Notes under the pieces: model-generated
The model's input: the letters and a program-made list of their open reading frames with translations, nothing else
What the model was told of the DNA's origin: nothing
Databases searched by the model: none
Shown here: positions 16,385 to 60,378 of the stretch, one piece after another
Numbering within the stretch: the first letter of the stretch is position 1
How the letters are laid out: every line of letters starts with the position of its first letter
Origin: a virus
Virus record (IMG/VR): IMGVR_UViG_3300010396_000002
Coordinates: 1-64,000 of that record
Length of the DNA: 64,000 nt
Strand: one strand, 5' to 3'
Translations under genes and position numbers: made by a program

Positions 16385-17056
16385 TCAGCCCGGCGGGGGC
16401 TGAGGGGCCGCGTCGAGCGCCTTCTTCCGGAGCTGGATGAGCTTCGGCGGCGCCGGTTCCTTCTTCTCGCACTTGTCGGCGCGATAGGTCCGGCAGATGT
16501 CGGGGCGGTCCTTGTAGATCGTGCACCAGCCGGTCTCCTGGTCGAGGAAGACGCAGGCCATCGGCACCGCGTCCCCTTCGTACTTCGCCGTGCCGGCCCC
16601 CTTGTACGGCACGCGCTTGAGCTTGCCCACGTAGCCGGCAGGGTTTGGTTGAGGGAGAAGCTCGACCGCGGAGCGAGCGGTCCGCTTGCCCATCCGCGCG
16701 AAGTCCACGGCGTTGACCCCCACCAACTCGAAGACGCGCGCGCAGCACGCGCTGGTGCACTCCGCGCAGATCGCCTGCGAGTCGAGCAGCACGCCGCGCT
16801 CCTTCACCCATCGCAGCATGGCGTTGTTCACCTCCGCGACAGCCTGGCGCAGGTATTCGGGCTGCCGGGGGGAGTCGAGGCGGGCCGTCTCCGTCAACTC
16901 GCTGATGCCGGCGCCGGCGTGAGGCACGTTGAATGTCACGGTCGCCGTCTGCCCGGGGGCGTCGATCGTGACGGCGGCGAGGTCGATGAGCTCGAGCTTG
17001 GAGAGGGTGTCGTCCTTGGTCATGAGGACCGACTGTATGACAGTGCGCCGAGCCAT
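16385..17056 (-). CDS. YkgJ-family cysteine-cluster protein
   Basis: CAECTSACC...CVFLD...CTIYKDRPDICRTY. Confidence 0.85.
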   Translation of the reverse strand: MARRTVIQSVLMTKDDTLSKLELIDLAAVTIDAPGQTATVTFNVPHAGAGISELTETARLDSPRQPEYLRQAVAEVNNAMLRWVKERGVLLDSQAICAECTSACCARVFELVGVNAVDFARMGKRTARSAVELLPQPNPAGYVGKLKRVPYKGAGTAKYEGDAVPMACVFLDQETGWCTIYKDRPDICRTYRADKCEKKEPAPPKLIQLRKKALDAAPQPPPG

Positions 17057-17064
17057 GCTACCTT
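17033..17064 (+). promoter_or_regulatory. Operator-like box overlapping a putative sigma70-type promoter
   Basis: CTGTATGACAG (17033-17043); ATGACA-N16-TACCTT upstream of 17115 gene. Confidence 0.55.
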
Positions 17065-17114
17065 CCGGTTCGGACGACTACCGGCGCGCCGCTGCGCGAC
17101 CGAAGGAGGATCCC

Positions 17115-17672
17115 ATGCCCACGAACATCCGTACGCTCAGGACCGAGGCGAAGACCGCGCTGACGGAGATGGCGAAGCGCCTCGTCGCACTCGCCGACGA
17201 GACCGGAGACCTCGTCACCGAATCGCGCCGCATCCTGCTTCTTACCAACGACCCCGGGCTCTGGCCGCATGCAATGGTCGAAGGCCCCAGCACCGATCAT
17301 CGCGCACTCGACCGCGCCCTTTCGATCGTCGGGGAGGTGAGCAGTTTCCTGGACAACTGGGCCGACTGCTCGCGGGACCGGAGGCCGACCCCGCAGGAGC
17401 AGTCGGAGGCGTACGGCAACGCGGCCGCGCTCGCGCGTGATCTGGCGAAGTTGTTGGACAAGAGGGGGCTCGTCGGTCGAAGCCAGATCGTCAACGACGC
17501 AGCGCCGTTGCTGGAGGAGCGTCGCCAGGAGCTGTTCGAGCAGGAGGAGCCGGAGCGCGACCGGCGCGGGCGAGAGTTCGCCGAGAACTTCCTGGAGCCC
17601 GCCGTCCAGGCGACCAGCGCCGCGGTCAAGGCCCTCTGCGCGCTCGCCGACGCGCTCTGCACGGAGGCGTGA
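17115..17672 (+). CDS. Hypothetical protein
   Basis: AAGGAGG RBS; first gene of rightward operon. Confidence 0.65.
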   Translation: MPTNIRTLRTEAKTALTEMAKRLVALADETGDLVTESRRILLLTNDPGLWPHAMVEGPSTDHRALDRALSIVGEVSSFLDNWADCSRDRRPTPQEQSEAYGNAAALARDLAKLLDKRGLVGRSQIVNDAAPLLEERRQELFEQEEPERDRRGREFAENFLEPAVQATSAAVKALCALADALCTEA

Positions 17673-17674
17673 CC

Positions 17675-17980
17675 ATGGGCATGTCGATGAACGTCGTCGG
17701 CATCAAGCCGGCCGATGAGAAGTACCAGCGAATGATCTCCGCACGTGACGCATGCCGTGCCGCCGGCGTTCCGATCCCCGAAGAGGTTCGCGACTTTTTT
17801 GGTGGGGATCCAGACGAGGCCGACCCGAGCGGCGTCACGATCTACTTCAAGCCGGGCGCGTCGTACCCGCCCCACGTCGGCGTTGTCCCCTACCAGTATG
17901 GCGAACGCCAAGGCTTCGAGGTCGACCTGCGAAGCCTCGACCCCGACATCAAGATCCTGCGCTTCTACTGCGCCTGGTGA
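17675..17980 (+). CDS. Hypothetical protein
   Basis: GGAGG RBS; MGMSMNVVGIKPADEKY. Confidence 0.65.
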   Translation: MGMSMNVVGIKPADEKYQRMISARDACRAAGVPIPEEVRDFFGGDPDEADPSGVTIYFKPGASYPPHVGVVPYQYGERQGFEVDLRSLDPDIKILRFYCAW

Positions 17981-17989
17981 GGAGGGACC

Positions 17990-18475
17990 ATGCCCGACAT
18001 CGAGAAGATGAGCGAAGAGGAGATCCACAAGCACCTGGCCCAGCGCGCAGAGACGAGCGCACTGGCAGCCACACGCGAAGCCGGTGAGCGCTACGCCGCC
18101 ACCCACCCCGTCGTGGGTCGGTGGCGGGTCACCACGGAGGGGGACGTCGAAGGGAGAACCACGCGCGACCTCGGCGTGCATGTTGGCCACGTCGCCGACA
18201 TCGCGGCCACGCTCGCACCGCTGGTGCACTATGGGCTCGACTTCAGGCCGGAGCCAGAGCCGAAGACGCCGACGCTGCGCGGAGGCGCGGACATCTCCGT
18301 CGCCGTTCACGTTCCAGACGCTGGGTCCGCGTTCGATCAGATGACCCCGGAGCACCGGGCCGTCTTCGCCCGCGCCTGGTTCAGCCAGGCCACGGCAAAG
18401 CACGTCGTCACGCTGGAGGTCCGCGAGAGCAACCACTATGGCTGCGTGCTGCTGCGCATGAGGCCCATCCGATGA
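17990..18475 (+). CDS. Hypothetical protein
   Basis: GAGGAGG RBS; GRWRVTTEGDVEGRTTRDLG. Confidence 0.65.
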   Translation: MPDIEKMSEEEIHKHLAQRAETSALAATREAGERYAATHPVVGRWRVTTEGDVEGRTTRDLGVHVGHVADIAATLAPLVHYGLDFRPEPEPKTPTLRGGADISVAVHVPDAGSAFDQMTPEHRAVFARAWFSQATAKHVVTLEVRESNHYGCVLLRMRPIR

Positions 18476-20106: not shown

Positions 20107-20117
20107 CCCGCGCGCGA

Positions 20118-20161
20118 CTGTCACACAGTCGCTTGACCCATCCCGATCGCTGTGTGACAGT
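20118..20161 (+). promoter_or_regulatory. Promoter flanked by two operator-like boxes
   Basis: CTGTCACACAG 20118-20128 and CTGTGTGACAG 20150-20160; TTGACC-N17-GACAGT. Confidence 0.7.
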
Positions 20162-20202
20162 CGTCCAAGGCGTCGATCTTGCGATGCCCGAGGGAGATCA
20201 TC

Positions 20203-20451
20203 ATGAACGTTCGCCATGTCATCGCGGTTGGTGTTGTCTCGGCTTTGCTTGCGCTCACCGTAGCCTCGGGCTGCTCGTCGTCGACGACCAACCCTGGCTG
20301 CCAGACGTCGGCCTGCTCCAACCCAACCTGCCCGTCAGGATGCGTCGCGGATCCGTACACCTACCTCGGTCAGTCGTGGTGGGAGTGCGATCCGGACGGG
20401 AGCGGCGACACCACCGCGGATAGCTGCCCGACGTGTGCGGCGTGCCAGTGA
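20203..20451 (+). CDS. Cys-rich lipoprotein
   Basis: Signal peptide with ASGC lipobox followed by multiple Cys. Confidence 0.65.
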   Translation: MNVRHVIAVGVVSALLALTVASGCSSSTTNPGCQTSACSNPTCPSGCVADPYTYLGQSWWECDPDGSGDTTADSCPTCAACQ

Positions 20452-20636: not shown

Positions 20637-20645
20637 GATCTGCCC

Positions 20646-40700: not shown

Positions 40701-42075
40701 CCGGCGCGCCGCAGGTGCAGTGCATGCACCCGTCGACCGGGTTGTGCTCGGCGATCGGGTGCTGGCAGCGGCCACATGCACCAGCGCCCACCGCGGCGAA
40801 CTGCTTCGCCGCCAGCGCTGCGCGGTCGATGACCTCGGGGGTCGTGGTGGTGGTGTTCATGGTGCTCCTCCGGCGGGTCCTCTTGCTGCGCCTCTTGCCC
40901 AGCGACCCGCCCACACCGGGCACCGTAACCGCTGTTTGGCGGCTTGTCGAGGCACTGTGTGACAGCGCTCGGGCGCGTGTGTGACAGCGGGGTCAGGTCG
41001 CCGGAGCGGTCGGGAGCTTGGGCGGAGACTACGTCAGGCCGGAACGCGGTACCAGAGCGAGAGCGCGGTGAGCGAGATGCACCTGCCCGCCCACCCATGA
41101 CGACAGTTCTGGAGGGTCGCCATGCCCGTCGCTTCGTTGAAGCTCCGGAGCTTGTAGCGGTGCCACGGAGCCGAGCAGCGTTCGGACTGGAACTGGACGT
41201 ACTCGGCGCCGACCTCGGGCAGCGTGTGCCCGACCTCCGGCGGGTAGTGGCAGGCCATCAGAAGACCTCGACGACCCGCGCGTCTCTGTTGCCCGGATCG
41301 TTCCGCAGCAACCACCCACTGGCGTCCTCGCGGGTCTCGAAGGCCTTCACGTCCTCGTAGCGGGGATCGACGCGAGCCGCTGACGCCCATCGCCAGAGGA
41401 GCCCACCACGGCTCTCCGTCAGCACGAAGTCACCGATGAAGGTGGACTCCTCGACGCGCCAGCGCGGGACAGGGGAGACGGTCAGCACTCGTCGCCCGTC
41501 TCGGTCAGGTAGAGGTGCACCAGTTCGAGCTTGTCGGTGGACATGCCGTCGAGACCCCAGCCCTTCCGCTTCGCCGCGGCCAGCGCCCGCTTCTGCTCGG
41601 CGACGGGGTAGCTCTGGATCTCCGCGATGAGGTCCGCCCGCCGCTTCATCTGCCAGAGCGCGGTCTCCACCTTGCTCTCCGCCGCCGAGAGCGCACGTGG
41701 GAGCTCGGTGTGAGGCACGCCGGGGAAGGCGTCCCAGATCCGTTGCTGGATCTCGGCCGCATCCATCTTGCGTCTTGCGTGCGTCGACGGGGATCCGCTT
41801 GGTCACCCCGTTGTGCGTGATCTCGATCCAGTCGTGCGCCGGGGTGAGGGCCGTCGGAACAACGATGCCCATCGTCAGTACCCCGCCACGATCCAGCCGA
41901 TGCTGACGAGCAGGATCGCGAGGCCGTAGAGAGCCAGCGCCAAGCTGGTGCGGCGGGTCGTGACCTGCACGTACCCCATCGGGCGCATGTAGACCTGACG
42001 GGAGCGCTTGATCATCTGGAAGAGCGCGACGAGCGCGATGAAGGCGGCGATGATGAGCAGGATCTTGGTAGCCAT
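37744..42075 (-). other. Run of about 15 small, mostly translationally coupled hypothetical genes
   Basis: ORFs 37744-38004, 38001-38264, 38261-38704, 38701-39078, 39075-39284, 39281-39577, 39574-39765, 39762-40064, 40097-40285, 40288-40443, 40440-40664, 40669-40860, 41034-41258, 41482-41766, 41875-42075; many ATGA/GTGA overlaps. Confidence 0.55.
40924..40987 (-). promoter_or_regulatory. Leftward promoter with two upstream operator-like boxes
   Basis: Boxes 40955-40965 and 40977-40987; TCGACA-N17-TACGGT on minus strand. Confidence 0.65.
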
Positions 42076-42125: not shown

Positions 42126-42734
42126 TCAGAGCCCGACAGCGGCGGTCTTCTGGATGTCGCCATAGAGCGAGCGCGCGGCCGCTCGGACGGTGAGCAGATC
42201 GCAGACCCCGCCGGCGAAGGCGGCAAGCTGTTCCGACGGCGGCAAGGCCGCGCAGACCTGGCGGCTGTGCCGGATCCTGCTGAGCGCTACCCTAGCCTGC
42301 GCGCGCCGGTCGCCGCGAAGGTGGCGCGCCCTCTTGAGCTGCCAGAGCCCCTCGGACGTCTGCTGCCGGCCATCCCAGTCGCACCAATGGTCGCCCGGGG
42401 CCTGGTAGCAAGCGCCGAGGTCCACGTCCCTCCGCAGCCCGCTCTCGTGCCTCGCGACGCCCACCATGTCCCTGGCATAGAGCTGGGCCTGCCAGGCGTT
42501 CCCCTTCGCCGCCTCGGTTGCCACGGCCGCAACGTCGGCCGCGATGCTCTGGTAGCGGGCCAGCGCCTGCTCCGGCGTCTCCTCGAACCCGGGGATCTGC
42601 CGGTGCTTCTCGGGCGGCGAGAGCCTGAGCATCGCGACGAGCACCCGCTGCTCGAGGGTGGGTTCGTCGGCGGTCAGGTGAGCCGGCGAGAGCAGGACCA
42701 GGAGCGCGAAGAGGGTCAGGAAGATGGTTCGCAT
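42126..42734 (-). CDS. Secreted lytic transglycosylase/lysozyme-like protein
   Basis: Signal peptide; VARHESGL (catalytic Glu) and GLWQL motifs. Confidence 0.65.
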   Translation of the reverse strand: MRTIFLTLFALLVLLSPAHLTADEPTLEQRVLVAMLRLSPPEKHRQIPGFEETPEQALARYQSIAADVAAVATEAAKGNAWQAQLYARDMVGVARHESGLRRDVDLGACYQAPGDHWCDWDGRQQTSEGLWQLKRARHLRGDRRAQARVALSRIRHSRQVCAALPPSEQLAAFAGGVCDLLTVRAAARSLYGDIQKTAAVGL

Positions 42735-42772
42735 GGCCACGCTCTTAGCACGATCCGTAGAGCCTGGAGCTA

Positions 42773-42817
42773 CTGTCACACAGTCGGCTTGCCCACGACG
42801 GCTCACTGTGTGACACT
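42773..42817 (+). promoter_or_regulatory. Promoter flanked by two operator-like boxes at a divergent junction
   Basis: Boxes 42773-42783 and 42806-42816; TTGCCC-N17-GACACT; same layout as 20118-20161. Confidence 0.7.
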
Positions 42818-42864: not shown

Positions 42865-43158
42865 ATGCCCGATCGAAGAGAAGAACCGCTGCCCACCTGG
42901 GCAACGCGCGTCATTAGCCGCACGGAACGCCACAGCACTGGCGTGAGCTACGCCGTCCTCGTCGAAGACGACGACGCCACGGACGCGCACGGCATCGGTC
43001 TCGGCGAGGGCCGCCGCTTGGCCATCTGGACCACCGAGGTGTTCTTCGGCGCGACCGACTCGCACTGCTCCGGCGGGGTCGCGTTCGTCATGGCGGCACG
43101 CGAGCAGGACCGCATCGCGACCGAGACCTGGGCCCGCCTCTCACGCGGGGAGGGCTGA
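42865..43158 (+). CDS. Hypothetical protein
   Basis: GAGGAGG RBS. Confidence 0.55.
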   Translation: MPDRREEPLPTWATRVISRTERHSTGVSYAVLVEDDDATDAHGIGLGEGRRLAIWTTEVFFGATDSHCSGGVAFVMAAREQDRIATETWARLSRGEG

Positions 43159-47807: not shown

Positions 47808-48155
47808 TCACCGCGACACCTGCGCCAAGGACGTTGGAGCATGCACCGTCCAGTGCAACCAGGCCTGCATGCACGCTCGCCAGTAGTTGACGTCCCGGAC
47901 CATCATCGTCCTGTTCTGGGCTGCCAGGATCTGCTCTTGATCTGCGGCTCGCTCGTGCACGAGGTGTTCGACCGGCCATGGCGCCTTGAAGAAAGGGAGG
48001 GCCTTCCGGAGGGCGACCCTCGCGTCATGCACCTCGGGCGGTGGCCAGAGGCATCTGTCGGCGTCCTTCGCTGTCAGCAGCGTCAGGAGAGCGTCCAGGG
48101 CCAGATGGATGGCGCGGGCGGCTTCCTGCGGGTTGGTCGGGTTGGTGTCGTCCAT
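47808..48155 (-). CDS. Hypothetical protein (MDDTN start)
   Basis: Open frame; shares 21 bp at its start with 54342-54674. Confidence 0.55.
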   Translation of the reverse strand: MDDTNPTNPQEAARAIHLALDALLTLLTAKDADRCLWPPPEVHDARVALRKALPFFKAPWPVEHLVHERAADQEQILAAQNRTMMVRDVNYWRACMQAWLHWTVHAPTSLAQVSR

Positions 48156-48170: not shown

Positions 48171-48236
48171 CTGTCACACACCCTGGTCGCGCACTGTGTG
48201 ACAACTTGCGGATCCCCCTGCTGCACTGTATGACAG
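48171..48236. promoter_or_regulatory. Three operator-like boxes at divergent junction
   Basis: 48171-48181, 48194-48204, 48226-48236; the last contains an in-frame ATG of the RHH gene. Confidence 0.75.
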
Positions 48237-50008
48237 TGGTCATGGCGAGAGCGAAGAAGCCTGAGAAGCAGGCGGCCGCAGTCGTGCGCAAGCGGCCGAT
48301 CCTGTCGTGCACGGTGAGCCCCGAGGTCCGAGCCAAGATCGACGAGCAGGCCGAGGCGGAGGAGAAGACCGTCGCGGACGTGGTCGACGCGAGGCTCCGG
48401 ATCGGGTTCGGGATGGACTGCCCAGCGGCCCCCGTAGAGGCGCTCCCGCCCGACGTCGAGGAGGACATCGTCGACCGGGGCCGCGCGACCGGGCACGACC
48501 GGCTGACAACCATCGCGGAGCTGGTGCGGCTCGGGTTCCTCTACAACCGGCGGATGCTCGAGACGCTCGACGAGGGCGTGAAGCTGGCGACGCGCCCTCC
48601 GCCGCCAGGTGTACCGGCCGAGATCGGTTGGCACCGGCGCGAGGCCGACGCGCGGGTGCTCGGCAGCCTCCGCGGCAAGCTCGACCTTCCGGAACTGGAG
48701 GACGGCGAGGCTGAGGGCGGGTACCGCGAGGTCGACGTCGCGTTGCACCAGCACGCGGCCACGAAGTATGCCGAGGCCGCTGGTGGCGTCGCCTGCGTGC
48801 TCTGCGGCGCGCCCGTTCCGGAGTTCCCGGTGCAGCGGTCCTGCACGAAGGCGCGCTCGAAGGGCCAGACCTGCATGCGGTTCTGGGCCTGGATCCGCCC
48901 GAACAAGGAGACGGAGGCCTACGACGTCACGAAGATCGCCGAGACGATGGGCGGCCGCGCATGCCTCGTCGGCACCCGCATGCCCGTCTCCACCGTCATC
49001 TCCTGGCACGAGCAGGGCGGGTGCGCCGAGGTCCGCCAGCAGTACCCGCACCTGACCGAGGAGCAGATCCACGTCGCGCTCGCCTACGCCGAGGCGTTCC
49101 CGGAGGAGATCGCCGCAGAGCTCGGCCACTGGCCCAAGCACGTCGAGTACCCGCTCTGCGCGTGCGAGCGGTGCCAGACGCTGTACGGCCCCAACTACCG
49201 CGGGCACTGCATGTGCGACGCGACGGGCGAAGATGGGCGGTCCTTCCTCGACAAGGTCGGAACGCGGATCGCAGAGGCTCCGGCATGCTGCCATGCAACA
49301 TGGAAAGATGGCCGCTGGTGCCACCATCCGAAGTGCGTTCATGGGGACGAGAAGCCTCCGCGTCCGCCGCTCATCGTCGAGGTGCCCACGCTGCTGTCGC
49401 TAGTCCGCGACCAACTCCCCAAGCACGGTGCACCGTCGCGCGAGGACGTCGTGGCCGAGGCCCAGGAGCGACTCCGCCGAGCCAATGCGGACCGTCTGGC
49501 CAACGAGTCGACCGACAACGGGGCGACGCATCCTGCCATGATCGACGCCATGCGCCGGAAGGGCCTGCTCAAGACCGCCGACGAACTGGCGGCGATCCCC
49601 GTCGTGCACGTCACCGCCGGCCCCCATGCACAGCAGGAGATGGCTGCCCTCCGCGCGAGGGGAGTCCTCTTCACCTCCGACGAGCCAGAGCAGGACGGAG
49701 CCGACCGAGTCGGGGCCGTGCTCGACGGGGAGCCCGCATCGGGGGCCAGGACGCTGGTGCTGACCGAGCCCCTCGTCTACCAGACCACCACCGTCGACAT
49801 CGACGGCGAGGGCAAGACCACCACCACGATCGACCCGCGGCCCGTCGTGGACTTCGTGCCCGATGCGGGCCAGCAGGACTTCTACGCCGAGGAGCCCTTC
49901 GTCGAGCGCCGGGTCGTCGACTACGACGCCGACCCTCGGCGAGGCCGTGGCGAGCCTCCGCCGGAACCGAAGCCTGACCAGCGTCGTCGGCGCGGGAGGC
50001 GGGGGTGA
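48230..50008 (+). CDS. Multidomain protein: RHH-like N-terminus, DUF433-like domain, Cys-rich segments
   Basis: RKRPILSCTVSPEVRAKIDEQAEAEEKTVADVV; MGGRACLVGTRMPV...YPHLTEEQIHVALAY; start 48230 or 48242. Confidence 0.7.
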   Translation: MTVVMARAKKPEKQAAAVVRKRPILSCTVSPEVRAKIDEQAEAEEKTVADVVDARLRIGFGMDCPAAPVEALPPDVEEDIVDRGRATGHDRLTTIAELVRLGFLYNRRMLETLDEGVKLATRPPPPGVPAEIGWHRREADARVLGSLRGKLDLPELEDGEAEGGYREVDVALHQHAATKYAEAAGGVACVLCGAPVPEFPVQRSCTKARSKGQTCMRFWAWIRPNKETEAYDVTKIAETMGGRACLVGTRMPVSTVISWHEQGGCAEVRQQYPHLTEEQIHVALAYAEAFPEEIAAELGHWPKHVEYPLCACERCQTLYGPNYRGHCMCDATGEDGRSFLDKVGTRIAEAPACCHATWKDGRWCHHPKCVHGDEKPPRPPLIVEVPTLLSLVRDQLPKHGAPSREDVVAEAQERLRRANADRLANESTDNGATHPAMIDAMRRKGLLKTADELAAIPVVHVTAGPHAQQEMAALRARGVLFTSDEPEQDGADRVGAVLDGEPASGARTLVLTEPLVYQTTTVDIDGEGKTTTTIDPRPVVDFVPDAGQQDFYAEEPFVERRVVDYDADPRRGRGEPPPEPKPDQRRRRGRRG

Positions 50009-51529: not shown

Positions 51530-54345
51530 CGGTTGCCACCATGCAGGCCGCGCGCGATGAGGAGCGCCCCAACAACGGCCGAGCATGCCGTGTCCGTGTC
51601 GAAGCGCTGGAAGGTGTCGCGCTGCGGGTCGCCGGCGCTCAGGACCATGTCGCCACCGTTCACGCTGTCCGTGTCTTCGTTGGTCTCCACCCAGACGTAC
51701 TCGACCTTGCCGAACGCCTCGGCGAGGCTCTGCTCGCCGGAGAGCGCGCGCAGCGCCTTGCGACGCTTCATCCGCTCGTCGTAGCGGCCAAGGATGGCGT
51801 ACTCGGCGCCGGTGAGCGTGTCTCCTCGCGCCTCGGATCGCATGTCCTCGTAGGTCTGCACCAGCGGCGGGATCCCGTCCGCGTCCGCGTACCAGAGCAC
51901 CGCCTCGCGGGACATCCAGCGCCCGGAACCACGCCTCGCCTCGTGTTCGTGGAGCCCGTCCAGGCATTCGGCGACGTGATCCACCGTCAGCATGTCCCGC
52001 GGCGGGAAAGGGGGTGCCCCCTCGAGCATGGCGAGGATCGTGCGGCGCCTGACCTCGATCAGCCAGGCAGGGAAGGGGTGCTCGGCCGCATCCTCGGCCA
52101 GGAGGTGCTCGACCTCGCGGGTCACCCAGAGCTCGGACTGGAGGATCGCGACGAGGACCGCGCCCATGTCGACGACGGTCTGCCACCAGAGCGCCTCAGC
52201 GGCCGCGGCGAGCAGCGCGCAGAACGCCGGCATCTGGCTCGCCGCCACGACGAAGCTCACCGCAGGCATGTGATCCATGAGGCTCCGCGTCAGCCGGAAG
52301 CACTTGGCCATGATCTCGACGCCGCCGCTGACGTAGAGCGCGACCTCACCATGCCCGCGCCGCACGCAGAGCACGGGCACGCCGAGCGCCTTGGCAGCGG
52401 TCTGCTCGATGCCATGCACGGTCGGGCCCGCGAACTCGATGGGCGCAGACGGATCGGGCATCTGGAAGGCTCGAGCCGCCCAGTTCGCATGCTCCCCCGT
52501 CGTCGGGTGCCGGACGTTGGCGAGGTGCTCCTGCTCGCAGCTCGTGAAGACCATGCTCGTGAAGACCTCGAGCCCCTGCTCCGTCGGGACCCACCACTTC
52601 GCCACGAACGTGAGCCGCGGGTCGACCTCGCCCCTGTCGTTGAGGCCGTGGTTGACGATGCAGCGGAGCAGGCCCGCCGTGCCGGCCTTGCCTACGCGGA
52701 ACGCGTTGATGCGCGCGAGCGCGGGCTCACCACGGCTGTGCGCCATGATCTGGTTGAACTGCGCGGGCGTCGTCGTCTCGTCGGTAGCGACGACCTGCCA
52801 AGCGACGTGCATGACGCCGGCGACGCTCCGGAGCTGGGCCACGAGCATGCCTTCGGGCTCCAGCTCCGTGCTCAGCGTGCGGAAGTCGAACGCAGCGGAG
52901 GGGGCCGGAGCGTCGAGACGCAGGCTGCCGTCGGGGTCGGCGAGCATGGTGCGCGGCTTCTCGACCAGCTCGGCGGCGATGTGCTTCGCCGCGGTCTTCC
53001 GCGAAGCGACGTACTGCCGGTACGCCGTGCACCGCTCCATGTGGGCGAGCCCAGCGCCCGCGGTTCCCTCGCGTACGGTGCCGCAGGCCGGGCAGACCTC
53101 GACGTTGCCGCGCTCTTCCCAGAAGGCTGGACGGTCCTGCGACGAGCCGCTGGCCACGCATCGGAGCTGCCCGTCGGACGTCTCCACGACCTGGCCAGGC
53201 GTGTATGACGCCGGGCGCGTCTTCCCGGAGCCGTCGCGCACCACCAGCGTGTTCGGCTCGACCTTGCGCCAGCGGTCTGGCTCGGCGCGCACGCTCTCGA
53301 ACGAGAGCCGGCCGCTCGTGCCAATCGTGAAGCACTCGTCGCTGGTGACCTCGCCGAGGACAGCGCTCGAGACGCCCTCCCGCTCACCGGGACGGGCCCG
53401 GATGGCATACTCCCACGTCTCGTCGACGAGCACGTGCCTGCCGTCTTCCAGCGCGACGCCGATGCACTCCCAGTGCTTGACGACGTCCGCTTTGGAGAAG
53501 ACCCAGCCAGGCCTGTCGAAGATGACCTGCTCGCCCGGCGTGCTCATGACCGTGGCGGTCCCGATCTTTGCGCGCCACACCTGATGCTGCGCCGGCTGGA
53601 CCTGGTCCTGCTTCTCCGCCCGCACGTCGATGCGCAGCACGCCGCAGCCGTTGATCTCCTGGCCCTGGGGAAGCACCCACTGCCACTTCGGGTGCTCCAC
53701 GCCTCGGTCGACTGCGCGCACCACGTCGTCGAGCGCTCCGCGCAGCACGCGCAGTCCGGCCTCGCGCGCACAGATCCAGAACGTTCCCTCGGCCTGTGCC
53801 TGTGGCCAGTCATCGCTGGTCATGCGGTGCAGCGTCAGGACGCGCGCGCCCAGCACAGGCCCCACGTCCAAGATCCGAAGCTTGTGCTCGATACAGTGCC
53901 ACACCGCGTCGCGGAGCTTGGCCATGTCTTCGCGTGAGCCGCTCAGCGTGAGCGAGGCGCGCTCGTCCAGCTTGCCGGTGATGCCCCCGGCCTTGGTCCA
54001 CTCGGCGGGCTCGCCCTCGAGCAGTGCCTCCTCAGTCGTGCCGCTCTTGCTCATGTGTGTGACGTGGCACTGCCCCTCGCACGTACGCTCGCCGTCGACG
54101 ATCTTGTAGGTGATCGTCCGAGCCTCGACGAAGGCGTCGTGGAGGCCTTCGTCCCTCCCATTCACGGTGAAGATGATCTTGCGGCTCGCCTTCCCGGGCA
54201 CAGACCACAGACTTCGGGGAGGCCGTGTCCGCTCGCGAGCGCGCCACGTTGCGACCGCGCTGGTCTCGAGGAGCTGCCCGTCGAGGTAGAGCCGCGCCGA
54301 CTCCGCGCACTCCGACTGCTGCTGGCTGTAGTTGGTGTCAGTCAC
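51526..54345 (-). CDS. Large mosaic hypothetical protein (939 aa)
   Basis: Long open frame; N-terminal paralogous domain; internal CPAC...HMERC. Confidence 0.7.
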   Translation of the reverse strand: MTDTNYSQQQSECAESARLYLDGQLLETSAVATWRARERTRPPRSLWSVPGKASRKIIFTVNGRDEGLHDAFVEARTITYKIVDGERTCEGQCHVTHMSKSGTTEEALLEGEPAEWTKAGGITGKLDERASLTLSGSREDMAKLRDAVWHCIEHKLRILDVGPVLGARVLTLHRMTSDDWPQAQAEGTFWICAREAGLRVLRGALDDVVRAVDRGVEHPKWQWVLPQGQEINGCGVLRIDVRAEKQDQVQPAQHQVWRAKIGTATVMSTPGEQVIFDRPGWVFSKADVVKHWECIGVALEDGRHVLVDETWEYAIRARPGEREGVSSAVLGEVTSDECFTIGTSGRLSFESVRAEPDRWRKVEPNTLVVRDGSGKTRPASYTPGQVVETSDGQLRCVASGSSQDRPAFWEERGNVEVCPACGTVREGTAGAGLAHMERCTAYRQYVASRKTAAKHIAAELVEKPRTMLADPDGSLRLDAPAPSAAFDFRTLSTELEPEGMLVAQLRSVAGVMHVAWQVVATDETTTPAQFNQIMAHSRGEPALARINAFRVGKAGTAGLLRCIVNHGLNDRGEVDPRLTFVAKWWVPTEQGLEVFTSMVFTSCEQEHLANVRHPTTGEHANWAARAFQMPDPSAPIEFAGPTVHGIEQTAAKALGVPVLCVRRGHGEVALYVSGGVEIMAKCFRLTRSLMDHMPAVSFVVAASQMPAFCALLAAAAEALWWQTVVDMGAVLVAILQSELWVTREVEHLLAEDAAEHPFPAWLIEVRRRTILAMLEGAPPFPPRDMLTVDHVAECLDGLHEHEARRGSGRWMSREAVLWYADADGIPPLVQTYEDMRSEARGDTLTGAEYAILGRYDERMKRRKALRALSGEQSLAEAFGKVEYVWVETNEDTDSVNGGDMVLSAGDPQRDTFQRFDTDTACSAVVGALLIARGLHGGNR

Positions 54346-54674
54346 GAGCCGCTCCCGTCCGCGGGCACGTCCTCACCGGCCCTCTTCTTCAGTGCGTCGG
54401 CGATCCACTTGTCCCCCTTGGTCAGGTCGTACTCGATGGTCGCGATCAGATCGCGCTTGGTGAAGACCCCGTAGTTGCCGCCGAGTCGTCCTCGGATGCC
54501 ATCGAGCACGCCGTACGTGATCGTCGGCTCCTGTTGGAGGGTCGGCTTCGCGTCGGGACAGAGGGCGCGAGCCTGATCCCCTCCGAGCGCGACGTGCTGC
54601 ACGACGCGTTGGTAGAGTTGGTAGAGTGCCAGCGCCTCGTCGGCGTTCGGCTTGAAGCTGTTGGTGTCGTCCAT
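54342..54674 (-). CDS. Hypothetical protein (MDDTN start), apparently leaderless
   Basis: ATGACA-N16-TACCCT-N7-ATG; operator-like box 54703-54713. Confidence 0.6.
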   Translation of the reverse strand: MDDTNSFKPNADEALALYQLYQRVVQHVALGGDQARALCPDAKPTLQQEPTITYGVLDGIRGRLGGNYGVFTKRDLIATIEYDLTKGDKWIADALKKRAGEDVPADGSGS

Positions 54675-54705
54675 GCCCGGCAGGGTACCACTGCCTGGCG
54701 CGCTG

Positions 54706-55245
54706 TCATACAGTCGACGGGAAGACCTCGACCAGTGCGACGACGTGCCGCTCGAGGTTGGCGACGACGTGCGGGAAGTGCTCCCTGAGCGCGGCCAGCA
54801 TCGACGGCGTGTCGTGCTCGCCTTCCATCAGGAAGACGCTGTTGCAGGCCCCGCGCTCGTCGCCCTGGCAGCGGTCCCACCAGGCCAGCGCGGTGAAGCC
54901 GTTGTCGAGGACGTGCCGCAAAAACTGGCCTTGCGGAAGCTCGTCGGCGTCGTAGTGAACGCGCTCGCTCTCCTCCTTGGTGGTGCCCTGGCCCTGCCAG
55001 CAGAGCGCGCCACCGTGCCGCCACCTCCAGCGCTTGGGCGCGAGCGTTCCATCCAGGTGGTGGCGATGGGCGCCGCGCCGATACCACTCCAAGCCATCGT
55101 CGTAGACCGTGCGCCCGCCCGGCGCGTGCAGGAAGTGGCCCGACTGGTTCCAGCACCCGAAGTAGTAGACCTCCCTCCACGCTGTGTGACAGCGCTGGCT
55201 GCACTGTATGACACCCGCTTGCGCTGGTCCACACAGCCGTGTCAT
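54706..55245 (-). CDS. Conserved phage hypothetical protein; start uncertain
   Basis: YYFGCW..SGHFLH...LDGTLAP...GFTALAWWDR...CNSVF. Confidence 0.6.
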   Translation of the reverse strand: MTRLCGPAQAGVIQCSQRCHTAWREVYYFGCWNQSGHFLHAPGGRTVYDDGLEWYRRGAHRHHLDGTLAPKRWRWRHGGALCWQGQGTTKEESERVHYDADELPQGQFLRHVLDNGFTALAWWDRCQGDERGACNSVFLMEGEHDTPSMLAALREHFPHVVANLERHVVALVEVFPSTV

Positions 55246-55249
55246 ACAG
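55182..55249. promoter_or_regulatory. Three operator-like boxes
   Basis: 55182-55192, 55204-55214, 55239-55249. Confidence 0.7.
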
Positions 55250-55312: not shown

Positions 55313-55543
55313 TCAGACCACCAGGATCTCCCGCTCGGTGCCGTCCTCGGCGCGCATGATGATGCGGCAGCGCTGGTCACGGGCGAGGATCAACTCCTCG
55401 TAGAACGTGAGCGCGCGCCGGATCGCCTCCGTCTTGCTGTCAGCCTCCGAGAGCGCCACCACGCGCTCGAGCCTGGCCTTCGTGCGCTCGGGCAGCTCCA
55501 GGCTGAGACGGGTCTTCGGCTCCGTGCTCGCCGGCCGCGGCAT
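55313..55543 (-). CDS. Ribbon-helix-helix DNA-binding protein
   Basis: TRLSLELPERTKARLERV...SKTEAIRRAL..YE. Confidence 0.8.
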   Translation of the reverse strand: MPRPASTEPKTRLSLELPERTKARLERVVALSEADSKTEAIRRALTFYEELILARDQRCRIIMRAEDGTEREILVV

Positions 55544-57118: not shown

Positions 57119-57396
57119 GCGCCACCGCCTTTGGTCGCTCGCCGTCGCTCGAGCGCACGCTGCGCGTCCGCGTCGACAGCGCTCTCCAGCTCCTCGTCTG
57201 GAAGCGTCGCGAGTAGCACCTCCTTGAACGCCTCGAGCACGGTCTTGCCCATGCCCCGATTGCACCGGAAAATGAGAACCAGGCTCTGCGCATAGCCCGC
57301 CTGGTTTGGCCAGAGCGCGAGGATCCTCTCGATCGCCTCTTCGTCGGTCATCGGCGCCCGCTGCCCGAAGCCCTCCCGCTGCCGGTAGTCGTCCAT
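57115..57396 (-). CDS. Hypothetical protein
   Basis: GGAGGAGG RBS, downstream of six-box array. Confidence 0.6.
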   Translation of the reverse strand: MDDYRQREGFGQRAPMTDEEAIERILALWPNQAGYAQSLVLIFRCNRGMGKTVLEAFKEVLLATLPDEELESAVDADAQRALERRRATKGGGA

Positions 57397-57416
57397 CGCT
57401 TCGTCCCTCCTCCGTA

Positions 57417-57564
57417 CTGTCACACAGTACCGTGGCGTCGTGTATGACACAACCGGCCGGCGCTGTCACACAGTGCGCTCAGTTGCCGCGAGCTCGCTTC
57501 TTCTTCGCTGTCATACAGACCTCCAGCACTCTGTCATACACCAGCCGCAGCCGCTGTCACACAG
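57417..57564. repeat. Array of six 11-bp boxes with 23-bp period
   Basis: Starts at 57417, 57440, 57463, 57508, 57531, 57554. Confidence 0.9.
57479..57514 (-). CDS. Candidate 11-aa basic micropeptide MTAKKKRARGN
   Basis: GGAGG-N5-ATG; fills the 45-bp gap in the box array. Confidence 0.35.
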   Translation of the reverse strand: MTAKKKRARGN

Positions 57565-58288
57565 CGGACGGTGGGGCCCCTGAGCCAGGTCCCTGCCCGC
57601 CCTGTCCAGGCGGCTGCGGGACGGGGAGGCCGTGCTTCTGCGCCATGTGGGCCAGGAGCTTCGCTGTCGCCTCCGGTCCAAGGGCCTCCCGGACGCCGGC
57701 CAGGAACACCTCGGACTGGTGCCGGAGCACTTCGGCCTCGGTCACGGAGGGCGGCGGAGCTCCGGGGATGCCGGCCCAGTCGTCTGGGTAGTGCCGCTCG
57801 AGTTGGCGCCGCATCTCGGCCGCGCTGCCCTTCGATAGCTGCTGGAGCATGATGGCCCAGAGGTTGTGGCGGGTCGAATCGACATGCCTCCAGAACTCCA
57901 CAAACGCCTTGAACGGCTGCTTTGCCTTCACGGGGAAGCCGTCGTTCTTGTGGTCGGTGCCCTCCACGAACCAGAACGCCAAGGTCGCCAGGGGCACGCC
58001 TTGCTGCTGGAAGGCTGGATTGCGCTTCGCGCCTTGGATGAAGAGCGACGCCGCCTTGACCACCGCTTGGAAGTCCATGGTGAGCGGGTGGCCGACCTTG
58101 CCATCCTTGGCCTTGAAGGCGGCCTCTAGCTCGCCCCTGAAGTTCTCCTCGTGCTTCTTTTGGGCGGCAAGGATGCCCCTGAACTCCGCGTTGAGGGGAT
58201 CTTCGGGCTTGAACGGGTTCTCGAGGAAGTCTGACCAGTGCGGGTCGGCCTTTCGCTTGCGCTTGGTCTGGCGGGGCTTCTGGGGCAT
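57557..58288 (-). CDS. Putative terminase small subunit (HTH type)
   Basis: GHP...G...GVPLATLAFW..G...FVEFW..V...LERHYPDDW pattern recalled for TerS-like proteins; upstream of terL on same strand. Confidence 0.55.
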   Translation of the reverse strand: MPQKPRQTKRKRKADPHWSDFLENPFKPEDPLNAEFRGILAAQKKHEENFRGELEAAFKAKDGKVGHPLTMDFQAVVKAASLFIQGAKRNPAFQQQGVPLATLAFWFVEGTDHKNDGFPVKAKQPFKAFVEFWRHVDSTRHNLWAIMLQQLSKGSAAEMRRQLERHYPDDWAGIPGAPPPSVTEAEVLRHQSEVFLAGVREALGPEATAKLLAHMAQKHGLPVPQPPGQGGQGPGSGAPPSAV

Positions 58289-58313
58289 GGCTTCAGGAAT
58301 GCGGGTTTCGGGG

Positions 58314-60338
58314 CTATGTGGCACGCGCGCGCGGCTTCTCGGCCGAGTAGGCGTCTGCCAGGACGAGACGGGAGCGGCAGTTCGAGCAGGTGACCTTGGG
58401 GCGGTCGCGGGTGACGGTTCCGGCGTCGGCGATCCGGATCGCGGCTCGGCCGGAGCAGCACACCGGGAACCCCCGGGTAGCCACGACGATGCCGTGGGCG
58501 GCACTCCTCCACCGCAGGGGGCCGGCGTAGTGGGTTCTCGGGCCGGGCTTGGCCGGTGCGGGGGTCGGTTCGTCGGCGGTCCCCATGCGTTCGTGGAGTC
58601 GGCTGAGCTCGAGGTCGATGCGGGCGGGAGGGAGGCCGGCGGTGGCGAGCCAGTGCCGGAAGCCGTCTTCGGAGAAGAAGGTGAGGGAGGTGAGGCGGTC
58701 GTGGGCGGTGGAGGGGGGGAGGCCCTTGCGGATCTGCTCGGCGACGAGCTGGGCGCCGGAGGCGAAGGCTTCGCGCTCGTGTCGGGGGGTCCAGGTCACG
58801 GGGTCCTCGACGGGCAGGGCGGCCAGCCGCTCGGCCTTCGTGTTCATTGGTCGGCCCTCCGGCATCTGCACCAGTCGCACTCAGGCTCGACGTGATGGCA
58901 GCCGTGCACCTTGCCGGAGCGGAGGACACAGCCGGTGCAGCCCTGCGCGTAGGAGCACGGGGTGCCGCACCAGCCGCTCTCGTGAACGGCGGGACGGCCG
59001 CATGGGCAGACGTCCGCGGTCGAGCCCGTCGCCGTGAGCCGGAGAACGGCGGCAGGATCCTTCGCGCGGAGCTGCTCGCCGATCGAGGCGGACGTCGAGG
59101 GACGGTGCTGGAGCATGTCGTAGGTGACGAAGGCCCGGTCGACGGCCTCGCGGCGCATCATGAGGGCGGGGACGTCGACGATGCGGCGTCGGCTCATAGT
59201 TGCACCTGGAAGGCGTCGGCGAGCGGCCGGAAGCCTACCCGCTGGCTGAGCATGGCGACGAGCGCACGGCCGTCAGCGGCCAGCTTGACCGTCATGCGGG
59301 CCACGTCGTCAGGGCTCAGGTCGAGCCCGGAGAAGGCGACCGCCGTCATCGTCAGGAGCGAGCCCAGAGACAACAGCGACAGCCGAGGAGACACGCGAGG
59401 CTTGGGTGCGTCGTCCATGATCTACCTCTACCACGTAGGACCGATCGTTGAGTCACCACGCCCGAGCATCTCCTGTTCGCGACGCTTCTCGTCCGCTGCG
59501 ATGCCCTTCGCGATCTTGTCGAACATGATCTTGGCATAGTCGGGAAACGGCCCCGTCAGCGCATCGACGGGGAGGGAGAGCGACATGCGGCACGGCTTGA
59601 CCTCGGCCGCGTCCATCGGCGCGCGCTCAGGTTCTTGGCGCGGTTCGGGCTCCCACGGCACGACACGGACCGCGACGCACGGAACGCCGCCGGGAATCTG
59701 GCCGCGGTGCGCCAGCGACATCCGGCCCTCAACCCATCGTTCGCCGTCCCATTCGAGCGGAAGTGCTGCGCTCAAGAAGAGCTCGGTCACGCGCCAGACC
59801 CCGACGCGTCCTGGGATCTCCACCGGCTCCCGTGACCTCCCGGCCTCAGCCGCGCGGAAGCGACTTTCGGTCCATGTGCCCTTGCGCTTGGGCACGAAGA
59901 GAATCGGCTCGCGGAAGCCGATCCCCAGGTAGAACCCGTGCTCGTCGTAGTCCTTCACCGCTTCGAGCTTGCCGACGAGCACTTGCTCGACCATGATGTC
60001 TTCCGCAATCTGCTTGATCCAGTCGTTCATCGTGAGCCCTTGGTCTTGTCCACGACCTTGTGCTTGCCCGCGGCGACGTCGGCGGCGAGCTGCTCCAGCT
60101 TCTTGCGCTGCTTGTCAAAGCTCTTCTTCTTCGCCTCCACCATCTGGAGAACGCGGGCCCGCGCCGCTGCCTCGCCGCGGTGCCAGTCCTTCGGGGCAAG
60201 GCCCAGCGGGTTTGCTTGGCGCCCGCCGATCGGGAAGGCCGTGCTTCCAATGATCTCGACGCGCACCAACTCGATGCCGCGGGCGAGCGCGGACTTGGTC
60301 ACGTAGACGACGGCGATCTCTCGCTCGGCTGTGGGCAT
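58314..60338 (-). other. Five small hypothetical genes
   Basis: 58314-58847, 58844-59197, 59194-59418, 59428-60030, 60027-60338. Confidence 0.55.
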
Positions 60339-60378
60339 GCCCGTACTGTATGACAGAAGCTGTGCCGCTGTCACACAG
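60339..60378 (-). promoter_or_regulatory. Leaderless-type promoter overlapped by two operator-like boxes
   Basis: Boxes 60346-60356 and 60368-60378; GTGACA-N18-TACAGT-N6-ATG. Confidence 0.65.

Follow-up and report, generated by a model that had tools for sequence, protein, structure and literature searches.

The uncultured high-GC phage G000 carries, dispersed in 10 clusters through its 155.6-kb genome, 25 copies of an 11-bp box that are probably the operators of a phage-encoded ribbon-helix-helix (RHH) regulator; our candidate is the gene product of g82 (48242-50008), through its N-terminal domain. The window examined here is the stretch of 64,000 nucleotides at positions 1 to 64,000 of this genome. 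The initial annotation had proposed that one phage regulator controls many scattered operons, with the protein at 48230 as best candidate, and this proposal gains support from a corresponding network in the sister phage G011, from orthology of the RHH domains of the two phages and from the scarcity of the box in genomes of the likely host family.

All 22 boxes previously listed for the window were recovered at their coordinates (22/22), and a motif scan against shuffled sequence showed strong enrichment. In the window, exact matches to CTGTNNNACAG number 14, with 0.73 expected, and CTGTCAYACAG at one mismatch or fewer has 21 against 1.3 expected, a count reached by no shuffle; the 22nd box, at 57440, has two mismatches and scores 14-15.5 bits by PWM scan. 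Three further boxes lie beyond the window, at 116881, 116904 and 116936. The core TGTCAYACA is invariant in all 25 boxes, and the extended consensus is cgCTGTCAYACAGt. Gene starts and divergent junctions had been named as the preferred locations; indeed, each of the 10 clusters either precedes a gene start or occupies a divergent junction, and, with gene interiors making up 84% of the genome, 22 of the 25 box centres are located outside them (binomial P = 3e-15). Neighbouring boxes are 22 (three times), 23 (six times), 32 (three times), 33, 35 or 45 bp apart, so the spacings described as predominant, 22-23 and 32-33 bp, occur nine and four times. Spacing is unrelated to box orientation, and all four orientation combinations are seen among pairs, along with single boxes. 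Of the helical phasing that had been read into these values, the values themselves stand; phasing as their sole cause does not, because 22-23 bp is also the centre-to-centre distance of -35 and -10 elements and promoter geometry explains the spacing equally well.

The first cluster is a single box (17033-17043) at the divergent junction of g21 (16385-17023, minus strand) and g22 (17115-17672, plus strand); on the minus strand, box plus T gives TACAGT 8 nt ahead of the g21 ATG, and on the plus strand ATGACA-16-TACCTT spans 17037-17064. Boxes 20118 and 20150 (20118-20160, plus strand; 32 bp apart) flank TTGACC-N17-GACAGT (20133-20161) 5' of a small ORF, not in the gene calls, that starts at 20203. 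Some 95 nt 5' of g66 (40669-40860, minus strand) are boxes 40955 and 40977 (40955-40987, minus strand; 22 bp apart), with TCGACA-17-TACGGT immediately 3' of them. Boxes 42773 and 42806 (42773-42816; 33 bp apart) separate the divergent g71 (42126-42740, minus strand) and an ORF at 42865-43158 (plus strand), with TTGCCC-17-GACACT rightward and GTGACA-18-GATCGT leftward, the latter 9 nt ahead of the g71 start. The fifth cluster (48171-48236) has boxes at 48171, 48194 and 48226, with spacings of 23 and 32 bp, between g82 and divergent g81 (47808-48155, minus strand). The single box at 54703-54713 (minus strand) provides the -35-like ATGACA of ATGACA-16-TACCCT-7 nt-ATG for leaderless g89 (54342-54674, minus strand). 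Boxes 55182, 55204 and 55239 (55182-55249, minus strand; spacings 22 and 35 bp) lie 3' of g91 and 5' of, or inside, the uncertain 5' end of g90 (54706-55245, minus strand), with TGGACC-17-TACAGT at 55203-55231. The largest array (57417-57564, minus strand) comprises 6-7 boxes, that at 57440 being degenerate, in two 23-bp-period triplets 45 bp apart; it heads the g93-g92-g91 operon and abuts the g94 stop. Boxes 60346 and 60368 (60346-60378, minus strand; 22 bp apart) contain GTGACA-18-TACAGT-6 nt-ATG of leaderless g99 (60027-60338, minus strand). The cluster outside the window lies in a long operon at 117 kb, with g189 downstream.

Comparison with G011 (162.8 kb, DTR), whose TerL is 65% identical to that of G000 (only 79 of 239 proteins are common to the two phages), revealed a homologous network with an altered site. 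TGTCAYACA has 0 copies in G011, and a variant box, TGTCTAGCA, is present in 45 exact copies (49 by PWM), the two box types being mutually exclusive between the phages. The G011 consensus, CTGTCTAGCAS, has the arms of the G000 box and a changed inner 3 bp. Its centres lie outside gene interiors in 48 of 49 cases (P = 2.5e-36), at 28 loci, and most boxes form pairs 19-25 bp apart. Conservation in this relative thus extends to the network and the arms but not to the exact box. Orthologs tend to coincide among the operons headed by boxes in both phages (5/7; Fisher P = 0.02). We propose that in G000 ~12 operons, roughly 55 genes, are headed by box-bearing promoters, including that of g82 itself; the earlier description of these as accessory operons is roughly right, except that the long operon at 117 kb also contains a cluster.

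That the boxes are sites of a host regulator exploited by the phage is very improbable. Phages sometimes carry such sites, and CTGTCAY resembles a Pho-box half-repeat, but the boxes lack the 11-bp tandem repeat of Pho boxes and G011 uses a different box. Five Polyangiaceae genomes (12-14 Mb), from a host family that is itself only inferred, contain 0-3 copies each, no more than the reversed control, a result that does not support a match to a known host regulator site.

The candidate regulator g82 (48242-50008, plus strand, by codon-model gene call) is a protein of 588 aa from ATG 48242, or 592 aa from ATG 48230, comprising an N-terminal RHH domain, a DUF433 domain, a Cys/His-rich stretch and a basic tail. 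It lacks a Shine-Dalgarno sequence, and no full-length homolog was found among 5.8 billion proteins. A box had been described as overlapping the 5' end of this gene, which is true of the first ATG of the ORF (48230, contained in box 48226); the start supported by homology, from alignment with the G011 protein h131, is ATG 48242, 5 nt past that box. The RHH domain (48275-48421, plus strand; residues 16-64 counted from 48230) consists of an extended strand, RPILSCTV, and two helices, and occupies the first 12% of the multidomain protein. Matching its family profile to the PDB returned the RHH structures 8U12 (E = 3e-4) and 4HV0, AvtR (E = 0.014), and Foldseek searches with an AF2 model (pLDDT 78.5) gave top matches that are nearly all RHH proteins: Arc, CopG, AmrZ, TacA, NikA, AvtR and omega. 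The domain itself has no Pfam match at any threshold tried; such sub-threshold Pfam matches as its family members have all belong to the RHH clan, and two members (P0020 and P0024) are tandem-RHH proteins. The RHH fold of the domain is assigned from this model and from the profile match to solved RHH proteins.

In G011, this domain has an ortholog in h131 (reciprocal best hits, with E = 2e-5 against a database of 239 proteins; 49 aligned residues, 43% identical), with a beta-strand of SPMLATTVS against RPILSCTVS in g82. In both phages the gene directly follows a three-box cluster, with 5-7 nt between the end of the last box and the aligned ATG; the remaining parts of the two proteins are completely different. 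The RHH domain is the sole recognisable DNA-binding domain common to both phages among the matches listed, a tally that covers 25 of 40 Pfam families of common proteins, structural block aside, and that could miss a weak-scoring common DNA binder. A variant box in the sister phage together with an orthologous RHH domain behind a three-box cluster points to the phage's own RHH protein as the binder. We propose from these two genomes that box specificity co-evolves with the RHH protein. The HTH-like DUF433 domain of g82 (48929-49090, plus strand; residues 234-287, E = 4.4e-13) has no counterpart that we could find in G011; its absence from the sister regulator makes it probably not the box reader, and we judged this role improbable.

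A second RHH protein, g91 (55313-55543, minus strand; 76 aa), had been named as the alternative binder; it would autoregulate through the 6-7-box array in front of its operon and also govern the remaining clusters. It clearly matches Pfam RHH_1 (8.9e-6) and the phrog 'transcriptional repressor', its operon stands behind the largest array, and it lies directly 5' of the cluster at 55182-55249. We nevertheless consider it quite unlikely, as g91 has no G011 homolog although G011 has a homologous network; its sole match there, h128 (E = 0.1), has no basic strand and was not identified as an RHH protein. Nor is there a box within 5 kb of its 14 chromosomal homologs (77-aa proteins, Polyangiaceae).

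It is also unlikely that some other phage protein reads the boxes. KorB-type ParB proteins bind dispersed operators, and ParB-like g102 and h160 are found in both phages (55% identical), but g102 has no recognised HTH and no Pfam match, and its own promoter has no box cluster. Lineage-specific readers could be the HTH-like g189, Xre-type g9 or a PadR protein in G000, and LexA-type h134 in G011. Of these, g189 is downstream of the 116.9-kb cluster and has weak HTH matches, and h134 strongly matches LexA_DNA_bind, E. coli LexA being a reader of CTGT. This reading needs two unrelated proteins for two clearly homologous box systems, and the site is short for an HTH dimer, being 11 bp long with its half-sites 6 bp apart. 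No counterpart of g189 was found in G011. As common binders we rejected the Fis-type HTH of h219, which is missing from its ortholog g138, the LexA-type domain of h134, which has no G000 counterpart, and the Xre, PadR and HTH_28 proteins, which are confined to G000.

The relation of the boxes to promoters bears on how they would act. Overlap with -35 or -10 hexamers, as first annotated, was confirmed in G000, where, among 19 intergenic promoter-like pairs, 7 have a hexamer that falls within a box, and the layout box-TTG(A/C)CC-N17-GACA(G/C)T pointed out at 20118 and 42773 recurs at 116904 (in general form, box-N4/5-TTG(A/C)CC-N17-(G/C)ACA(G/C)T). A Shine-Dalgarno sequence is missing from 6 of 7 genes that start within 45 nt downstream of a box in G000 (P = 0.006) and from 6 of 11 in G011 (P = 0.04); measured from the start codons of these genes, box centres are at 11-15 or 31-38 nt, where leaderless promoters have their -10 and -35 elements. 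Counting against promoter overlap, few G011 boxes overlap sigma70-like hexamer pairs (3/22). No clear promoter could be drawn in the upstream region of g82.

These positions, the 22-23 bp spacing and the presence in the box of (A/G)TGACA one way and (T/G/C)ACAGT the other would also suit promoter elements read by RNA polymerase, possibly with a phage sigma factor or activator, rather than repressor sites. We regard this as improbable: one 11-mer fills -35, -10 and sites 5' of a separate TTGACC -35 in either orientation, arrays of 3-7 boxes occur, the Pfam matches listed for the phages include no sigma factor or RNA polymerase family, and the sister phages, which presumably share a host RNA polymerase, have different inner 3 bp. 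RNA hairpins, terminators or recombination sites are extremely unlikely. Of the neighbouring pairs in G011, 13 of 20 are inverted repeats in convergent arrangement, with the potential for stems of 9-11 bp, but divergent pairs, equally foldable, never occur there, direct pairs are present in both phages, G000 has single boxes and pairs of every orientation, and no T-tracts follow the repeats.

On the operator reading that we favour, each pseudo-palindrome, CTGTC-A-YACAG, would be bound by an RHH dimer whose two-stranded beta-ribbon enters the major groove. The boxes overlap or adjoin the -35 and/or -10 hexamers of sigma70-like promoters, several of which are leaderless, and when occupied they would block RNA polymerase; pairs 22-23 bp apart cover -35 and -10 together, and those 32-33 bp apart flank -35 and cover -10. 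Given this overlap, autoregulated repression appears the most likely mechanism: the g82 protein would bind the boxes, repress rather than activate, and control its own gene through the three-box cluster 5, the proposed autoregulatory operator. Paired boxes fall on about the same helix face, which would allow cooperative binding. Known RHH arrays have centre-to-centre spacings of 7-11 bp; at the far wider 22-33 bp, any cooperativity would have to involve the regions outside the RHH domain, and these are entirely different in the two proteins. No integrase or lysogeny module was detected in G000, and the role of the network may be temporal shut-off of operons dependent on host RNA polymerase.

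Among known systems, Arc and Mnt (Salmonella phage P22 immI) and CopG (pMV158) resemble g82 in the RHH fold, being among the top structural matches of the domain model, in operators that overlap promoter hexamers and in an autoregulated regulator gene, as proposed for g82. Each of these proteins works at a single locus, where dimers bind a 21-22 bp operator about one helical turn from each other, whereas the boxes are spread over 10 loci in G000 and 28 in G011, their centres separated by 20-33 bp, and the RHH domain is the first 12% of 588 aa in G000. As with omega (pSM19035) and ParG-type RHH proteins, a dimer would read a short asymmetric unit, direct or inverted, at several promoters. Omega heptads are contiguous with a 7-bp period, in a system tied to plasmid partition; the G000 units are 11 bp, spaced 22-33 bp, with no ParA partner seen. 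AvtR (Acidianus filamentous virus 6, PDB 4HV0), itself a tandem-RHH protein, and SvtR (SIRV1) are likewise virus-encoded RHH proteins acting over several viral promoters. Among PDB sequences, the g82 family profile ranks AvtR second (E = 0.014), a marginal relationship, and, unlike g82, both serve viruses of archaeal hosts with far fewer sites.

The stoperator/operator network of cluster A mycobacteriophages (L5 gp71, TipsytheTRex repressor; PMC9283540, PMC6550527) also has more than 20 copies of one short site dispersed at promoters and intergenic gaps, a phage-encoded binder (here a candidate) and a site that changes together with the repressor between relatives. The cluster A repressor is a monomer with an HTH and a second domain that reads a 13-bp asymmetric site oriented with transcription (PMC9283540); in contrast, the G000 candidate is an RHH protein, its 11-bp pseudo-palindromes stand in either orientation, mostly in pairs or arrays, and neither an integrase nor a lysogeny module was found in the phage. 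The principle of dispersed phage operators is familiar; this regulator family and its scale are previously undescribed.

The 11-bp box CTGTCAYACAG forms a dispersed, intergenic network in the phage genome (G000). In the 64-kb window, CTGTNNNACAG occurs in 14 exact copies against 0.73 expected, and CTGTCAYACAG at ≤1 mismatch in 21 copies against 1.3 expected. The enrichment over background anticipated in the initial annotation is thus present, and all 22 boxes that it reported are real, the one at 57440 being the sole degenerate box. A whole-genome PWM scan identified 25 sites in 10 clusters, the tenth at 116881/116904/116936. The core TGTCAYACA is invariant among these sites, with flanking C and G in 20 of 25 and a T following in 13 of 25. 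Box centres fall outside gene interiors in 22 of 25 cases, with interiors making up 84% of the genome (P = 3e-15), and the placement at gene starts or divergent junctions, first described for nearly all boxes, holds for every cluster. Neighbouring boxes are spaced by 22–23 bp (nine cases), 32–33 bp (four), 35 bp (one) and 45 bp (one), in all relative orientations (++ 4, −− 3, +− 4, −+ 4), and single boxes may point either way with respect to the gene downstream. These spacing classes hold whatever the relative orientation of the boxes, so the geometric midpoint of the site is also its functional centre. The largest array (57417–57564) comprises two triplets of 23-bp period, 45 bp apart; a basic micro-ORF of 11 codons on the minus strand, MTAKKKRARGN, lies in the gap, with its ATG inside a box. 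Box cluster 2 is followed first by an ORF missed by the gene caller (20203–20451, plus strand), whose N-terminus, MNVRHVIAVGVVSALLALTVASGCSS, resembles a lipobox-containing lipoprotein signal peptide; its product may be a surface or exclusion protein, with predicted box control.

G000 is a complete virus record of 155,559 bp with direct terminal repeats and ~69% GC, in which a codon-usage model trained on long ORFs of the same genome called 239 genes. The head module (0.5–9 kb), the large terminase gene (35751–37739) and, beyond the 64-kb window, the replication and tail modules are recognizable; the virion and replication modules are box-free, and proteins around the boxes and the candidate regulator g82 are mostly orphans in Pfam and PHROGs. 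No cultured phage with DNA-level similarity was found, the best capsid match being 26% identical. Searches of viral contigs with the proteins g92, g88, g1 and g188 gave no relatives or distant ones only, a capsid-protein search gave only a 12-kb structural contig without boxes, and a double-box DNA pattern retrieved unrelated 24-bp tandem repeats in contigs of lower GC. Among metagenome contigs, an RHH alignment had no matches and a terminase alignment found relatives at ≤34% identity only. A Pfam tally of 150 G000 proteins includes DpdA (E = 2e-85), a Mom-family protein, DUF5131, PAPS-reductase-like proteins and a ParB-like protein, a set that suggests DNA hypermodification of the 7-deazaguanine or Mom type.

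A large-terminase search retrieved a complete sister phage (G011; terminase 65% identical) of 162,811 bp, with terminal repeats and 68% GC, to which 79 of the 239 G000 proteins have a match. TGTCAYACA is absent from G011 (0 copies), and the 9-mer most over-represented there is TGTCTAGCA, present in 45 exact copies and in 49 by PWM (consensus cACTGTCTAGCAs). These 49 sites form 28 clusters, mostly paired, with centres mostly 19–20 or 23–25 bp and also 33 bp apart, and 48 of 49 lie outside gene interiors (P = 2.5e-36). The boxes align as CTGTC-AYA-CAG in G000 and CTGTC-TAG-CAS in G011, equal in length and alike in their arms, with a different inner triplet, and the two types are mutually exclusive, G000 being without any copy of the G011 core. 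Conservation in a related phage, proposed as a check on the network, is thus found as a variant that is likewise intergenic and paired. To judge from the two genomes, the network is a conserved trait of this phage group whose sequence has drifted, as expected of a site co-evolving with a phage-encoded binder and unlike a host site or a core promoter element. Both genomes strongly avoid CTAG, with 67 copies in G000 where ~449 would be expected and 129 in G011 where ~480 would be, and yet 45 of the 129 G011 copies are inside its operator boxes.

We also compared the box with likely host genomes. Homologs of the small RHH_1 protein g91 (55313–55543, minus strand) are almost confined to chromosomes of Polyangiaceae (Polyangium, Sorangium, Byssovorax), with GC as in the phage, which makes Polyangiaceae the probable host group of G000. 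The box occurs in 0–3 copies in each of five Polyangiaceae genomes of 12–14 Mb, no more often than a reversed control pattern, against 16 exact copies in the 155-kb G000; the possibility, raised initially, that it matches a known host regulator site is not borne out in these genomes of the likely host family. Members of the g91 family (77 aa, ~55% identical; loci L020–L033) follow, in chromosomes, an apparent small hydrophobic protein gene, which suggests a host origin for g91. Three further readings of the boxes were rejected: a Pho box, as tandem 11-bp repeats are lacking; a restriction or modification target, because the boxes are biased to intergenic DNA; and a replication or packaging site, given 10–28 separate loci.

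Several clusters place the box directly on promoter-like hexamers. The layout box-N4/5-TTG(A/C)CC-N17-(G/C)ACA(G/C)T had been described at 20118 and 42773; it is present at both and at a third cluster (116904), with the second box over the −10. The box supplies a hexamer for g22 (ATGACA-16-TACCTT), g89 (ATGACA-16-TACCCT, 7 nt before its ATG) and g71 (GTGACA-18-GATCGT, 9 nt before its GTG), and g99 has both hexamers inside its two boxes (GTGACA-18-TACAGT, 6 nt before ATG). Altogether, a box contains at least one of the hexamers in 7 of the 19 intergenic promoter-like pairs of G000; a consensus promoter scanner found nothing at this GC content. Genes starting ≤45 nt from a box centre commonly lack a Shine-Dalgarno sequence, both in G000 (6 of 7; background 32%, P = 0.006) and in G011 (6 of 11; background 25%, P = 0.04). 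The box centres lie 11–15 or 31–38 nt before the start codons of these genes, which would be −10 and −35 positions for transcripts that begin at the start codon itself. From the hexamer overlap and these positions we read the boxes as promoter operators: they would cover hexamers of host-type promoters, many of them leaderless, and a protein bound there would exclude RNA polymerase. The spacings of 22–23 and 32–33 bp had been ascribed to helical phasing; the distances themselves stand, but 22–23 bp is also the distance between −35 and −10 centres, so it is accounted for no less well by promoter geometry. In the 32–33-bp class, the −10 would carry one box, and the other would lie upstream of the −35. 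Neighbour pairs in G011 are convergent in 13 of 20 cases and never divergent, and the leaderless cases point to one box at −35 and an inverted box at −10 contributing GACAGT. Only 3 of 22 G011 boxes overlap a recognizable sigma70-like pair, so the occlusion model is less well supported in that phage.

By parsimony, the protein that reads the boxes should be present in both phages and differ between them. Residues 16–64 of g82 (48242–50008, plus strand) and residues 26–74 of the 136-aa G011 protein h131 are reciprocal best matches at 43% identity (E = 2e-5 to 8e-5 in databases of ~240 proteins; tblastn 1.4e-6). Each gene stands directly behind a three-box cluster, with 5 nt (g82) or 7 nt (h131) from the end of the last box to the aligned start codon and no Shine-Dalgarno sequence before either. 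The N-termini align (MARAKKPEKQ and MPTPKKPAKQ), which places the g82 start at 48242 and not at the ATG inside the box. All three boxes fall in the 71 nt that precede the g82 start, the last centred 11 nt before the ATG, a leaderless −10 position; the same arrangement precedes h131, where 13 nt separate the centre of the last box from the ATG. No convincing −35/−10 pair could be drawn for the own promoter of g82.

Most other DNA-binding proteins fit these expectations less well. The initial annotation named g91 as the alternative regulator, a proposal now judged unlikely: blastp and six-frame tblastn found no G011 counterpart of g91 or of g189, a protein with weak HTH matches, the best g91 match there (h128, E = 0.1) is without a basic strand and not recognized as RHH, and boxes are absent from the Polyangiaceae chromosomal loci that encode g91 homologs. 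Among 49 G011 proteins with G000 homologs, from outside the structural block, the only DNA-binding Pfam families in a listing of 25 of 40 were HTH_8/HTH_7. The Fis-type HTH (HTH_8, E = 5.6e-11) was located by eye at the C-terminus of h219 (G011 146289–146939, minus strand); its G000 ortholog g138 (87213–87818, minus strand) aligns over the T5orf172 domain only, without the HTH C-terminus, and this HTH was rejected as the shared binder since it is confined to the G011 copy. Both orthologs are T5orf172/GIY-YIG-like proteins. G011 further encodes a 132-aa protein, h134 (97212–97610, plus strand; L043:17212–17610), with a LexA-type winged helix (E = 4e-21) and no counterpart in G000; it has no apparent peptidase domain and lies 1.1 kb downstream of the G011 RHH regulator. 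G000 encodes an Xre/Cro-type HTH protein (9094–9372, plus strand; HTH_3 E = 9e-7), divergent from the portal gene with no boxes nearby, and by Pfam tally one PadR-like protein and one of HTH_28 type; blastp against the G011 proteome matched none of the three. The ParB-like protein g102/h160, common to both phages and 55% identical, is a less likely candidate for the box binder. Parsimony favours the g82-type RHH protein as the candidate, on covariation from two genomes. A 102-aa protein, g11 (10031–10339, minus strand), resembles the strand and first helix of h131 (43% over 35 aa, E = 0.001 in a small database); with an acidic ‘strand’ and no second helix, g11 may be a paralog that has decayed, or the similarity may be fortuitous.

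The shared domain probably belongs to an RHH subfamily whose further members are of metagenomic provenance. A profile of the 51 shared residues found 11 further members among 1.84 billion representatives, all from metagenomic sequences and mostly 56–117 aa long; two of them (P0020, on an 81-kb contig, and P0024; 115–117 aa) carry the domain twice in tandem, as would single-chain pseudo-dimers. Pfam matches of the family are sub-threshold and nearly all to the RHH clan (RHH_5, FitA-like RHH, RHH_1, RHH_3, CcdA, NikA-like), and g82 and h131 themselves match no Pfam RHH model even at E ≤ 10. Against the PDB, a nine-sequence family profile (A6) matched the antitoxin Rv0298 (8U12, E = 3e-4), AvtR, a regulator of an archaeal virus (4HV0, 0.014), and VapB26 (0.066). 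An AF2 monomer model built on the nine-sequence alignment (pLDDT 78.5) shows an extended segment and, after it, helices at 27–40 and 44–55; a first run on two sequences (pLDDT 59) was too uncertain for use. The top Foldseek PDB matches are nearly all RHH proteins (Arc, CopG, AmrZ, TacA, NikA, NikR, AvtR, omega, ParD), with target-normalized TM of 0.64–0.83 and rmsd of 1.5–2.5 Å over ~40 residues, and E-values that are weak because the domain is so small. As modelled, residues ~16–64 of g82 have the strand-helix-helix topology of RHH (MetJ/Arc) proteins and superpose on solved members. The predicted ribbon differs between the phages and the helices are better conserved: RPILSCTVS in g82 accompanies the AYA triplet of G000, and SPMLATTVS in h131 the TAG triplet of G011, in two genomes only. 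Such a ribbon change would fit an altered inner triplet between conserved arms, with the assignment of residues to bases inferred. In 121 genomes of the order around Sorangium, the RHH profile found ordinary VapB-like antitoxins only and not the g82 subfamily.

The choice of g82 as best candidate, made for an RHH/DUF433 protein, therefore stands for its RHH domain, which is common to both phages and behind three boxes, and less so for DUF433. That domain is real (PF04255, residues 234–287; 49.3 bits versus a cut-off of 23.6, E = 4.4e-13, full model length) and is probably not the box reader, because h131 is without it and G011 offers no match to g82 outside the RHH domain. No full-length homolog of the 592-aa g82 architecture was found among 5.8 billion proteins, and its extension had no matches in the ESM Atlas.

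A simple operon model places ~55 G000 genes and ~120 G011 genes in box-headed operons, with 5 of 7 orthologs box-controlled in both phages (P = 0.02), or 6 of 8 counting the regulator pair. We propose that the network most likely serves to shut off a class of early or accessory operons at a set time. It may alternatively serve immunity in a non-integrating lysogen. No integrase or recombinase was found among 150 G000 proteins (E ≤ 1e-4). Box spacings of 20–33 bp are long for RHH dimer contacts, and outside the RHH domain g82 and h131 are unrelated. A bolder reading, which we hold to be rather doubtful, is that g82 represents a new master-regulator architecture, in which an RHH domain of an uncatalogued subfamily reads operators doubling as leaderless −35/−10 hexamers, and a 500-residue extension (HTH-like DUF433, a Cys/His-rich putative metal site and a basic tail) bridges boxes 22–45 bp apart or senses a signal, so that a single protein would set when roughly a quarter (G000) to half (G011) of all genes are shut off in a 155–163-kb non-integrating Polyangiaceae phage.

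Dispersed operator networks of HTH repressors are well studied in mycobacteriophage L5 and also in P1 and phiC31, and an autoregulated phage repressor that occludes promoters is a textbook principle. A bacterial-phage network of 25–49 sites read by an RHH protein would, if true, be a new case, and the two phages would be a natural pair of orthogonal RHH/operator specificities, a ready-made contrast in which orthologous domains differ at few β-strand positions and boxes at three base pairs. It would also give a first regulatory map for large, orphan-rich, uncultured phages probably infecting Polyangiaceae. This family (the Sorangium/Polyangium group) includes important natural-product producers with few genetic tools. 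Orthogonal repressor/operator pairs and the compact leaderless promoters of such phages could serve as useful parts.

The stoperators of cluster A mycobacteriophages are >20 asymmetric 13-bp sites bound by a monomeric HTH repressor, with orientation tied to transcription (PMC9283540). The present networks resemble them in having many intergenic sites dispersed genome-wide (25 in 10 clusters in G000; 49 in 28 clusters in G011) and in a site that co-varies with its putative repressor among relatives, here two genomes only. They differ in that G000 box orientation is not tied to transcription direction, and in that the candidate binder is an RHH protein and not the monomeric immunity repressor of a temperate phage, built of an HTH and a second domain, in a phage with no integrase among the proteins tallied. 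P22 Arc and Mnt and CopG share the RHH fold and the logic of promoter overlap, but act at single-locus operators of 20–22 bp with dimers about one helical turn or less apart, whereas box centres are 22–23, 32–33, 35 and 45 bp apart in G000 and 19–25 or 33 bp in G011. Comparable operator networks have been noted in unrelated phages, one of them with the box GTGCTAGCAC beside an Arc-like protein. Omega likewise reads a short asymmetric unit in either orientation, although its heptads are contiguous. What appears new here, on comparison of the two genomes, is an uncatalogued RHH subfamily, fused in G000 to DUF433 and a long extension, together with a genome-wide box set that has changed in specificity between the sister phages.
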